Part shown: one piece after another, positions 1-4,541 of the stretch
Layout of the letters: each line of letters opens with the position of its first letter
Position numbering within the stretch: the stretch's first letter is position 1
Virus record (IMG/VR): IMGVR_UViG_2671180432_000007
Length of the DNA stretch: 4,541 nucleotides
Source of the DNA: a virus
Taxonomy: Duplodnaviria; Heunggongvirae; Uroviricota; Caudoviricetes
Strand: one strand, 5' to 3'
The notes under the pieces: generated by a model
The model's database searches: none
What the model saw: only the letters and a program-made list of their open reading frames with translations
What the model was told of the DNA's origin: nothing
Translations under genes and position numbers: made by a program

Positions 1-83
1 GGAAGTCGCTGTCGTTCTCAAAATCGGTGGAGCTGCATGACAAAGTCATCGGGCATTATCTGAACATAAAACACTATCAATAA
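1..83 (+). CDS. insB: IS1 transposase insB, 3' end only (26 C-terminal codons plus TAA at 81-83)
   Basis: Translation of 3-80 gives KSLSFSKSVELHDKVIGHYLNIKHYQ followed by TAA, matching the recalled C-terminus of IS1 InsB. The gene is 5'-partial at the window edge. Confidence 0.88.
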   Translation, partial: KSLSFSKSVELHDKVIGHYLNIKHYQ

Positions 84-98
84 GTTGGAGTCATTACC
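1..98 (+). mobile_element. IS1 right-end fragment (terminal 98 bp, IRR at 76-98); the rest of the element lies outside the window to the left
   Basis: Reverse complement of 76-98 is GGTAATGACTCCAACTTATTGAT, which I recognise as the IS1 right terminal inverted repeat. Plus-strand frame 3 encodes the InsB C-terminus. The gp47-like reading frame is broken exactly at 98/99. Identification is from memory of the IS1 sequence, not a database search. Confidence 0.9.
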
Positions 99-692
99 TG
101 CGCCCCCCTGTGGAATGTAGTAATAACGTTCCATAACGCGGGCACGCCATATTTCCAGATTTTCAATATCTTCACCGTCTGTAATGGTGTCAGCGTACCC
201 TGTGGACGGCAGACCACTGACGGGTGTTCCCAGTTGCATGGCAATACCATCATCCGTATTCCCCGCCGATCCCGGTTCGTCTGCCACAACAGGCACCCGG
301 AGAAGACCATCGGCTGCGGTCACCGTCGCCGTCGTGGTAAAGGTCACCTGATTATCACGCTGGATCTGCGTTCCCGCTGGCAATACCGGCGTCCCCTCTA
401 CGCCATCCCAGCGCACAAATCCCCGGGCTGCCACCGCTTCTTTTCGCGGGCAGCGTTTGATTCTGGCGTGCCGGTACAGCCAGTCTTCATCACACACGTC
501 CGGTAACAGATTTCTGGCAAGATAATCGATATACCCGTACAACGTGTGTACGGCTGCAGCCTGTACACGGGCATACACTTCCGCATCCATACGACGAAGC
601 AGCGTATCCTGCTCAAAGCGGGTTAATAAATCGCTCCGGATCATAGAAATAAGTTGCGGGAGGCCGGGGCGATAAAACTGACTGTCAGCCAT
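18..692 (-). pseudogene. Mu gp47/W-like baseplate J-family protein, 3'-truncated by IS1 insertion at 98/99
   Basis: 224-aa ORF with ATG at 692-690 and a GGAG Shine-Dalgarno 8 nt upstream. It sits last in the N-P-Q-gp46-gp47 order. Only about 198 codons (99-692) are phage-derived; the last 26 residues (GNDSNLLIVFYVQIMPDDFVMQLHRF) and the stop come from IS1 read antisense. Baseplate J proteins of Mu-like phages are about 350-380 aa (recalled, not checked). Confidence 0.78.
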
Positions 693-1634: not shown

Positions 1635-2694
1635 CAGAAATCCTCCTCAACATTTTTTTCTTCCTGGCGGTAACAGGCTCGGGGAGATAAGCATCTGCCG
1701 GGCCAACCCGTAATTCAGTCGTCGTGCCCCGGTCGTCCTGGTTATAGGTAACTTCTGCGATCACCAGTTCATCATTATCAAAATTATTCAGCGGGTCGAA
1801 AACGATGACAGATAACCCCGGACGCCATAACGCGCCACTGCCCTGCCGCCAGCCCTGAACCGTATATGTTGTCTCACGGGTAAGCGCAGCCCGTTGGCGC
1901 GCTTCAAATTCACAACGGGCCTTACAGGTTGCTGTCGTTGCTGTGCCTGACTGCTGAATCAACAAAGGGCGATAACGGGTCACGCCACTGTCCTGAATGG
2001 TCTGACGTATTGCGGCAATGGTGGCCTCACCAAAATCATCGTCGTTGCCCGGGCGCTGCCCACTGACCTGATATTCAGAAAACCGCTCTCTGATGCTTCT
2101 TTCCGTGTCACAGGAAAGAATATTCTCTCCCAGCACCAGCACCAGCGCCGTCGCCGCTTTACCTGTTCCGGGTTTTCCCAGAACCAGTCGCCCGCATTCA
2201 TCGTCATAAGCCAGCGTCTGAACCTGCCCCAGTAACCGGTTAAGACAATCGGCAACGGTTTCGCCGTGTTCCGGCTGGGCATCAATCACCGCTGTCTGCG
2301 GCACGCCAGCATCAACAACGGTGATGCCAAATGGCGCAGCCAGTTCACTGACTATTCTGAGCAGGTTTTTTCCGCTCTGCTGGAGTGGCAAAGCAGAGCA
2401 GTCAACCAGATCGGCTGTTTTGCTTCGCCCGACAATTCCCATGCTGACGCTGCTGGCGTCATAACGAAGCGGTAGTGCCTCCACATATCCGGTGAGCACA
2501 GGCTCATCCCCGATAAGCACTTCAACCAGCTCACCATTTTTTATCCGGGGTTGATAATCCCGGCTTCCGGGCCAGCGGGTGGTAATGGCAACATTAAAAT
2601 CCCGGGCAATACGGTTAATGCCCGCACTGATACGGACGGATGTCCAGCCGCCCCATTCGCGACCGGAAACCCGAAGTAAAACGGTATCATTCAT
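1612..2694 (-). CDS. Mu gp44/P-like tail protein (GPD / late control D family, baseplate hub)
   Basis: 360-aa ORF. Its ATG overlaps the N stop as ATGA (2691-2694), suggesting translational coupling. N-terminal and central motifs resemble Mu P / P2 gpD proteins as recalled. Position immediately downstream of the N-like gene. Confidence 0.83.
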   Translation of the reverse strand: MNDTVLLRVSGREWGGWTSVRISAGINRIARDFNVAITTRWPGSRDYQPRIKNGELVEVLIGDEPVLTGYVEALPLRYDASSVSMGIVGRSKTADLVDCSALPLQQSGKNLLRIVSELAAPFGITVVDAGVPQTAVIDAQPEHGETVADCLNRLLGQVQTLAYDDECGRLVLGKPGTGKAATALVLVLGENILSCDTERSIRERFSEYQVSGQRPGNDDDFGEATIAAIRQTIQDSGVTRYRPLLIQQSGTATTATCKARCEFEARQRAALTRETTYTVQGWRQGSGALWRPGLSVIVFDPLNNFDNDELVIAEVTYNQDDRGTTTELRVGPADAYLPEPVTARKKKMLRRISDERVFSS

Positions 2695-4015
2695 CTGACG
2701 GGTACCCTTAATGCCCTGACCGGAACAAAGCCCGGATGAGAGATGGCATTTCGATCCAGGATATCAGTTTCACGGGACGCATCGTCGTACCATGACGCAG
2801 CCAGAACAAGCGCAGGCAGAACTTCCGCTGGCGTTCGCTCTGCGGTTTCCTCCGTCTGAACCAGACGCGCCTGAATATCCCGGTTCAGTTCTGTACGTAA
2901 TGACGTCAGCTGAAAAAACAGCCTGTCATCCGCCGTACGCCTGAGCTCCTGTTCAATCGCCGCGTTCAGCGATTTGCGTATGATGGTGAGATTTTCCCGC
3001 GTGGGTGGTTGCGCTCTCTCATCCTGTCCTGTGCTGGCTGCCACGCTGTCAAGTGCCGGATGAGAAACGTGAATAATATCGGACTGACGTTCAGTGGAAC
3101 CACCAACAGCCACAACCGCCTGCTGATTTTTCACCAGGCTTCCGGGTTGTGGCAGTGAAGTGACCGCCCTTGTGGCTTCGCTGATTGCCGTCGTCCGGAT
3201 GACAGCAGCCACAAGGTTTGTCTGCTGTTTTTGCCTGATAACCGATGCGGAATCTGTGGGCCACACCGCACGCGGTGCCAGTCCTGGGTCCAGCGTAATG
3301 CCGGACATTGTCGTTATGGACTGCACCAGATCCTGTGTGTTATCCACCAGCCGGGTTCCGGCCCGCCAGGTATCCTGCAACGTATGCACAAAATCACTGG
3401 CAACCGACGGCGGCATCAGAATGACGGATAAATCGCCCTGCAGTAGTCTCGCTCCGGCAGAAACAGCCGAATTAACCATTTTGAAAGCTGTCTGAACGGT
3501 TCCCAGCATATCGGTCGTCCGGGCAATAACATCGTTCTGAATAAAGTCCGGTATTCCCGCGAGATCAAAATCGCCGAACATGTCTTCAATCAACTCATCC
3601 AGGAATACGGACGACTCCTCCAGTTTTCTGGCGGTTGCAGCTCCGGCGACCGGAAATGACAGTTCCNNNNNNNNNNNNNNNNNNNNNNNNNNNNNNNNNN
3701 NNNNNNNNNNNNNNNNNNNNNNNNNNNNNNNNNNNNNNNNNNNNNNNNNNNNNNNNNNNNNNNNNNNNNNNNNNNNNNNNNNNNNNNNNNNNNNNNNNNN
3801 NNNNNNNNNNNNNNNNNNNNNNNNNNNNNNNNNNNNNNNNNNNNNNNNNNNNNTGGGTATTCATGGACCTGAACGCGGCGTCCGAACGAACCCTCGTCGC
3901 TCTCCACCGAAAACGGAACGCCACGAAATGAAGCGTCGTAAAGATTATCGCGCCAATTGATACCTGAAGATGCAGAAAAGAGTGAAGAAAGAGAAGGTAA
4001 AGAAGGTAAGTCCAT
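2691..4015 (-). CDS. Mu gp43/N-like DNA circulation protein, interrupted by a scaffold gap (3667-3853)
   Basis: The 5' part (4015 to 3854) encodes MDLPSLPSLSSLFSASSGINWRDNLYDASFRGVPFSVESDEGSFGRRVQVHEYP, a typical DNA_circ_N signature, with ATG at 4015-4013 and GGAG 5 nt upstream. The frame ending at 2691 is open all the way from the gap edge (3665), so the 300-aa track ORF is the 3' part of the same gene. Frame continuity across the gap cannot be judged because the N-run length is arbitrary. Confidence 0.75.
3667..3853. other. Assembly/scaffold gap (187 Ns)
   Basis: Uninterrupted run of n characters. Confidence 1.
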
Positions 4016-4029
4016 ACTGTCTCCACTAT

Positions 4030-4053
4030 AAAAAAACCGCCAATTTCTGGCGG
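4030..4053 (-). terminator. Putative rho-independent terminator downstream of the low-GC ORF and immediately upstream of the N start
   Basis: On the minus strand: stem CCGCCA (4053-4048), loop of 5 nt, stem TGGCGG (4042-4037), then 7 consecutive T (4036-4030). It begins 8 nt after the ORF stop (4064-4062). The stem is short (6 bp, 5 of them GC). Confidence 0.55.
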
Positions 4054-4061
4054 CTTATATA

Positions 4062-4457
4062 TTAATCATCATTAATATCTTTCATATTCAATTTGCAATT
4101 TTCGTAGGTCACTCCCGACTCGCCATTAACATTAACTCCAGCTCTGATATTCCCGTTTTCTTTTACATCTACAAAAAACTGGCCTCTTGGCATCTTGAAC
4201 GCAAATGTAAAACCAACAGTATCTGAATCAAAATCATCATCTTTATATATTGGGATCAAAAATGTCATCGTCGCTGGTGATGCATTGTTTGCAAAATCAA
4301 ATACACCTATACTTTTGCCGAATTCATAAGAAGCTTTTCTCAATATAATCGCACCGCTGGCAGAAGGGGATGGGCACGATATCCTCAGTTGTCTGAATCC
4401 ATCTGTATCCAAGTCAACGTCATTATCTGCAGATGTTTTAACGGGTAATGACTCCAA
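4062..4457 (-). CDS. Hypothetical protein in a low-GC island; function unknown; possibly 5'-truncated or pseudogenised at the IS1 junction
   Basis: 131-codon ORF in a region of about 38% GC. The apparent start is a TTG at 4457-4455 inside the IS1 end, with no Shine-Dalgarno and an in-frame stop further upstream in IS1. Only 4062-4443 is non-IS sequence. The first internal ATG (codon 64) also lacks a clear Shine-Dalgarno. I recognise no family. Confidence 0.4.
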   Translation of the reverse strand: MESLPVKTSADNDVDLDTDGFRQLRISCPSPSASGAIILRKASYEFGKSIGVFDFANNASPATMTFLIPIYKDDDFDSDTVGFTFAFKMPRGQFFVDVKENGNIRAGVNVNGESGVTYENCKLNMKDINDD

Positions 4458-4541
4458 CTTATTGATAGTGTTTTATGTTCAGATAATGCCCGATGACTTT
4501 GTCATGCAGCTCCACCGATTTTGAGAACGACAGCGACTTCC
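4444..4541 (-). mobile_element. IS1 right-end fragment (terminal 98 bp, IRR at 4444-4466), inverted relative to the left copy; the rest of the element lies outside the window to the right
   Basis: 4444-4541 is the exact reverse complement of 1-98 (98/98). The plus strand at 4444-4466 reads GGTAATGACTCCAACTTATTGAT. Identity breaks at the next base inward (position 99 versus 4443). Confidence 0.9.
4459..4541 (-). CDS. insB: IS1 transposase insB, 3' end only (second, inverted copy)
   Basis: Mirror image of feature 1-83: the minus strand encodes KSLSFSKSVELHDKVIGHYLNIKHYQ followed by a stop. Confidence 0.88.
   Translation of the reverse strand, partial: KSLSFSKSVELHDKVIGHYLNIKHYQ

Follow-up and report, generated by a model that had tools for sequence, protein, structure and literature searches.

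Among the described systems closest to the locus considered here is the tail of phage Mu, in which gp47 (gene W; baseplate wedge protein 2; Pfam PF04865) is the counterpart of P2 gpJ and T4 gp6, and in which the genes gp43-gp44-gp45-gp46-gp47-gp48 follow one another in the order that is also found in this locus. The Mu baseplate has six wedges, each containing a single gp46 and a single gp48 together with two conformers of gp47; a three-helix core bundle is built from N-terminal parts of gp47 and gp48, and adjacent wedges touch mainly through a gp47-gp47 'handshake' (PMC11915804). Among phage proteins, L52 (P27p52) of Enterobacteria phage phiP27, an Stx2e phage, is the closest, with 97.5% amino acid identity over all 360 residues, and the order of tail and baseplate genes in phiP27 is identical; unlike the transposable Mu-like phages, the element that houses the locus is phiP27-like, with an HK97-type head. 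A third point of comparison is the Salmonella prophage ST64B, whose homologue (77% protein identity) is the same gene broken near its middle into two ORFs, sb21 and sb22. With this frameshift in SB21, ST64B is reported to be unable to form infectious virions, according to PMC3853940 and PMC7067206, which cite Figueroa-Bossi and Bossi (2004). Apart from this lesion, which is a revertible frameshift and involves no IS, ST64B is a complete prophage. Insertions of the kind described below are familiar from Shigella sonnei, in which no other IS has expanded as far as IS1, a major source of the pseudogenes of the species (Hawkey et al. 2020, PMC7373316).

The DNA analysed here, referred to throughout as the window, is a stretch of 4,541 bases, the first 98 of which are the exact reverse complement of the last 98 (4444-4541). 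Both ends are the IRR (right) end of IS1, pointing inwards, with the left copy on the + strand and the right copy on the - strand. The window thus consists of 4,345 bp of a phiP27-like S. sonnei prophage remnant with a Mu-type tail, together with 98 nt of each IS1, and the phage segment sits between two independently inserted IS1 copies of opposite orientation. It looks like a whole repeat-bounded contig, i.e. unique DNA between two copies of a high-copy repeat, since its shape is that of short-read assembler output, and the many contigs of 2-5 kb that carry the same chimeric protein are consistent with this. The features of the window are as follows.

1-98, + strand: right end (IRR) of IS1, its last 98 nt, with the body of the element beyond the left edge (translation of the InsB C-terminus; inverted copy of 4444-4541).
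3-83, + strand: C-terminal codons of InsB including the stop, with the translation KSLSFSKSVELHDKVIGHYLNIKHYQ*.
99-107, no strand: one copy of a 9-bp target-site duplication, TGCGCCCCC on the + strand and GGGGGCGCA in gene orientation (the same nine bases flank IS1 in S. sonnei 53G).
18-692, - strand: chimeric ORF of 224 codons, made up of gp47 codons 1-198 and 26 IS1-antisense codons, with its stop at 18-20 (ORF list and codon bookkeeping).
99-692, - strand: phage-derived part of the chimera, the N-terminal 198 codons (55%) of a 360-aa Baseplate_J / Mu gp47 homologue, baseplate wedge protein 2 (PF04865).
685-1095, - strand: homologue of Mu gp46 (baseplate wedge protein 1), 136 aa and apparently intact (Pfam GP46, 113.6 bits).
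1101-1634, - strand: homologue of Mu gp45 (baseplate spike / assembly protein V), 177 aa (Pfam Phage_Mu_Gp45 and synteny with intact prophages).
1612-2694, - strand: homologue of Mu gp44 (baseplate hub) (Pfam GpP-like and Gp44-like domains; protein and DNA alignments).
2691-4015, - strand: homologue of Mu gp43 (DNA circularisation / tube initiator protein), broken by 187 N at 3667-3853 (Pfam DNA_circ_N on the N-terminal piece).
4034-4056, - strand: terminator-like hairpin followed by a T run, just 3' of the low-GC gene (inspection of the sequence).
4062-4443, - strand: 3' part (about 126 codons) of a 160-aa low-GC gene, phrog_5586 (100% DNA match to FDAARGOS_944).
4435-4443, no strand: one copy of the target duplication of the second IS1, 9 bp, GTTTTAACG on the + strand and CGTTAAAAC in gene orientation (both copies flank IS1 in the 53G locus).
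4444-4541, - strand: last 98 nt (IRR end) of the second IS1, inverted with respect to the first, with its body beyond the right edge (inverted copy of 1-98; 53G locus).

The ORF at 18-692 starts with ATG. Its codon 198 (GCA, Ala) occupies 99-101 and codon 199 (GGT, Gly) 96-98, and its final 26 residues, GNDSNLLIVFYVQIMPDDFVMQLHRF, are encoded by 21-98, which is IS1 read in antisense. Phage-like similarity starts at base 98 and positions 1-98 match thousands of places in E. coli genomes; as base 98 fits both the IS1 and the phage sequence, the junction lies at 98/99, give or take one base. The initial annotation had described an ORF of 224 codons that leaves phage sequence at 98/99 and carries a 26-residue IS-derived tail ending at 18-20; the ORF list, the codon positions and the start of the E. 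coli similarity all bear out the former, and codon bookkeeping showed the latter to be exact. The match of the ORF to Pfam Baseplate_J (PF04865) scores 87.5 bits against a cut-off of 21.1, and so lies above the gathering score, but it covers only profile positions 2-137 of 255, so that neither a complete domain nor a length of about 350-400 aa is present. Residues 1-198 match the intact protein of FDAARGOS_944 with E = 2e-149 (BLASTP), far beyond chance, the 199 identities counted over 201 positions including two chance matches in the IS1-derived tail. NCBIfam has no model for either the chimeric protein or the intact gp47 homologue. The ORF is a truncated member of the Baseplate_J / Mu gp47 family, a pseudogene fragment.

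Uninterrupted copies of the gene are found in about 49 E. coli prophages, where it is 1,083 nt long and encodes 360 aa. The intact homologue scores 185.3 bits with PF04865 and covers profile positions 2-255, and its residues 37-351 align with Mu gp47 (PDB 9ki1_H, also 360 aa) with E = 4e-36; other structurally defined baseplate J or wedge relatives of the intact homologue are 350-396 aa long. It had been supposed that the full-length family is about 350-380 aa, and the 360 aa of phiP27 L52, of the E. coli prophage proteins and of Mu gp47 agree with this, none of these homologues being about 200 aa. The phage-derived stretch at 99-692 had been taken for the N-terminal rather than the C-terminal part of the protein, and its alignment to residues 1-198 of the intact homologue upholds that view and places the breakpoint. 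Unlike Mu gp47, the copy in the window ends at residue 198 and continues with 26 IS1-derived residues. A C-terminal part is indeed missing from ORF 18-692, as the initial annotation had proposed, but the share is 162 of 360 residues (45%) and not a third. The position of the gene also fits the family, with the gp46 homologue at 685-1095 (the same length as in RMDEC465) on one side and, in the S. sonnei loci, a gp48 homologue (PF10076) on the other side, beyond IS1.

Within the assembly collection, 226 blocks contain the exact 224-aa chimera, corresponding to about 230 contigs of S. sonnei, those of strains 53G and Ss046 among them. The longest carrying contig was 2-5 kb in 186 of the 226 blocks and above 1 Mb in 20, and near-identical versions at contig ends bear the RefSeq name 'baseplate J/gp47 family protein, partial'. 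The insertion is fixed in many S. sonnei genomes. Neither IS1 junction was present in any of 5,426 complete E. coli genomes, and a degenerate 30-mer for both junctions and the intact gene, a pattern that matches the window, gave no matches in one-genome-per-species contigs. All ten of the long loci examined had the same gene order, namely sheath, tube, chaperone, tape measure, IS1, gp43, gp44, gp45, gp46, gp47 5' fragment, IS1 (inverted), gp47 3' fragment, gp48 and tail fibres, the downstream gp47 fragment being called as 131-137 aa (Baseplate_J_C) in these ten loci. The IS1 ORFs in the S. sonnei loci match PF03811 (Zn_ribbon_InsA), PF12759 and PF03400 (DDE_Tnp_IS1). One locus, L007 (accession HE616528.1, which we take to be S. 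sonnei 53G), was read base by base. Here the IS1 within gp47 is 768 bp long (10595-11362), its imperfect terminal inverted repeats GGTGATGCTGCCAACTTA... and GGTAATGACTCCAACTTA... are readable at both ends, and GGGGGCGCA stands on both sides of it. The frame that resumes at the second copy of the duplication encodes residues 196-360, of which 164 of 165 are identical to the intact protein. The portion that the initial annotation had proposed should be sought beyond the left IS1 is thus present in complete S. sonnei genomes, where it immediately follows this 768-bp IS1.

These loci bear directly on the possibility that the C-terminal 45% of the gene was removed, or moved elsewhere, by an IS1-mediated deletion or rearrangement. 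Such an event could be entertained from the window, which ends inside IS1 and leaves the far side out of view; pairs of inverted IS1 can invert or delete DNA by recombination, and Shigella genomes are described as highly rearranged (PMC8072062). However, the ten long loci with the identical chimera are all colinear with the intact prophage, and in 53G both the duplication and the adjacent 99%-identical 3' fragment can be read directly, which refutes this explanation for the complete genomes sampled and leaves it highly improbable overall. In the genomes sampled the missing 3' part is neither lost nor displaced elsewhere, and a simple IS1 transposition took place in which no phage sequence was lost. 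As the window extends 98 nt into each IS1, we infer the presence of the 3' fragment in the source isolate from the other genomes with the identical chimera; in that isolate, an IS1 IRL linked to GGGGGCGCAGACCCTGATTATG would exclude a deletion or rearrangement.

Taken as a whole, the locus is very probably explained by the left IS1 having split a gp47-type gene in place, within a prophage remnant that would be tail-incompetent, neutral debris. On this reading, the left IS1 transposed into codons 196-198 of the wedge gene and generated a target duplication of 9 bp, as is customary for the element. The reading frame of the 5' fragment leaves phage sequence after Ala198 and passes through 26 IS1-antisense codons up to the first stop, and the 3' fragment (codons 196-360) remains across the IS1 with neither a start nor a ribosome-binding context of its own. 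The junction expected of such a simple insertion would read IS1-IRL...GGCAGCATCACC, then GGGGGCGCA, then GACCCTGATTATG.

The consequences for the tail are a matter of prediction. A 198-residue fragment lacking the C-terminal half of the wedge protein would be expected to yield no closed baseplate. Polarity on downstream genes is a classical property of IS1 and the insertion should accordingly be polar on gp48 and the tail-fibre genes. The claim in the initial annotation that no functional tails could be made is a reasonable inference, for which ST64B sb21/sb22 provides a precedent, but the break in gp47, whilst sufficient, would not be the only reason, given the second IS1, the frameshift in the gp44 homologue and an element of the IS3 family adjoining the sheath gene. 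The remnant would thus be unable to make tails and would represent neutral debris of the S. sonnei IS1 expansion. A quite different role can be imagined in which the 198-residue fragment is an exapted remnant acting as a dominant-negative 'poison subunit' against superinfecting SfV-, SfII- or phiP27-type phages, an idea suggested by a fragment that is fixed across S. sonnei and that keeps the helix entering the wedge core bundle without the rest of the protein. S. sonnei is so clonal that no selection can be read from the conservation of the chimera; such a role is considered highly improbable.

If the left IS1 split the gp47 gene in place, the element at the other end of the window did much the same to a neighbour. 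The second IS1 (L007 5423-6190) is flanked by its own 9-bp duplication, CGTTAAAAC, and removes the first 34 codons, including a lipoprotein-like signal, MIKPFLMTVAILTSCC, from the 160-aa gene of which the remainder lies at 4062-4443 on the - strand. In FDAARGOS_944 the gene is 483 nt long, and the part in the window matches it at 100% of DNA positions. It is situated between the tape-measure and DNA-circularisation genes, has its own terminator-like hairpin (4056-4034), has a GC content of 37% compared with 54% in the baseplate block and occurs in only some related prophages. In phiP27 it is absent from between the tape-measure and DNA-circularisation genes, and the stretch matching the window carries no IS1 either. 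The only match of the gene is to phrog_5586 (unknown function), there being none in Pfam, NCBIfam or PADLOC, and it looks like a moron.

The presence of two identical, inverted IS1 ends bracketing the segment raises the question of whether the 4.3-kb baseplate segment was inserted as a unit together with both IS1 copies, in the manner of Tn9 or Tn1681. An inverted IS1 pair around a segment is the architecture of an IS1 composite transposon. Yet the two elements have separate 9-bp duplications, GGGGGCGCA and CGTTAAAAC, rather than one that is shared, the segment runs colinear with uninterrupted prophages, as do both outer flanks, and no copy of the IS1-segment-IS1 unit was seen in another context, so that this origin is extremely improbable. 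As regards classification, both the shared outer duplication and the foreign cargo of a Tn9/Tn1681-type element are absent. Equally improbable is the proposal that the 224-codon ORF is no lesion, being either one half of a natural two-gene wedge protein, as the separate PHROGs families for the N half (phrog_2103) and C half (phrog_1608) might suggest, or an artefact of the kind to which short repeat-bounded contigs are prone, because in the closest relatives one gene specifies all 360 aa, the only split homologue considered here (ST64B sb21/sb22) is a frameshift mutant reported as defective in the papers cited above, and independent assemblies repeatedly contain the junction, with more than 20 contigs of over 1 Mb carrying it.

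The two PHROGs families comprise 162 positions (phrog_2103) and 192 positions (phrog_1608) and may have arisen from split copies, of which ST64B sb21/sb22 is an example. The IS1-antisense tail also matches a family of its own, phrog_27209, which suggests that libraries of phage protein families have taken in fragments of pseudogenes and ORFs antisense to IS elements. The product name given in Ss046, 'putative head assembly protein' (UniProt Q3YYR0), is a misnomer for a protein that is a baseplate wedge component, and the record of ST64B Sb21 uses this label too, in its note. A more apt name would be 'baseplate J/gp47 family protein, interrupted by IS1'.

A number of other differences from the intact prophages were observed in the remnant. 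The gp44 homologue lacks one base of an A8 run (T7 at 1653-1659 on the + strand), a deletion that replaces its last 6 residues (NVEEDF) with 13 others (MLRRISDERVFSS) and produces a 23-nt overlap with the gp45 homologue. The deletion is common to the window and S. sonnei 53G and absent from FDAARGOS_944 and from phiP27, the gp44 homologue of which, unlike that of the window, has an unshifted C-terminus. An in-frame repeat in the same gene, (GCTGGT)n at about 2139-2156, varies among S. sonnei assemblies: taking 53G and the intact E. coli copies as basal, the window and a second S. sonnei locus (L004) have one extra unit (LV) and another (L006) has two, which accounts for gp44 gene calls of 358, 360 and 362 aa. 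In alignments with 53G and FDAARGOS_944, both of these have 254 nt where the window has the 187 N at 3667-3853, and the mask is therefore not length-preserving, so that the frame of the gp43 homologue cannot be assessed in the window. Further away, in 53G (L007 1-1022), an IS3-family transposase pair ends 62 bp upstream of the sheath gene, at the site where intact relatives carry the tail-terminator and head genes, and the other end of the remnant (L007 16090-16452) abuts the tmRNA gene (ssrA) and smpB. In two EIEC-like E. coli relatives (L001 and L002) the effector gene ipaHe was found beside the tail-fibre end.

The IS1-split gp47 gene is an ordinary occurrence and one that was already known, the ORF being on record under the Ss046 reference genome. 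Compared with the IS1 insertional pseudogenes described from Shigella (PMC7373316), it has the same 768-bp IS1, the same 9-bp duplication and a gene split in place; it does not differ from them in kind and is one instance among hundreds per genome. Its existence does explain the recurrent IS1-bounded contig of about 4.5 kb in short-read assemblies of S. sonnei. The two fixed IS1 junctions are possible lineage or typing markers and the (GCTGGT)n repeat in the gp44 homologue is a possible VNTR typing locus. Beyond the correct annotation of the gene the insertion matters little, but it illustrates the erosion of a prophage by the expansion of IS1 in S. sonnei.
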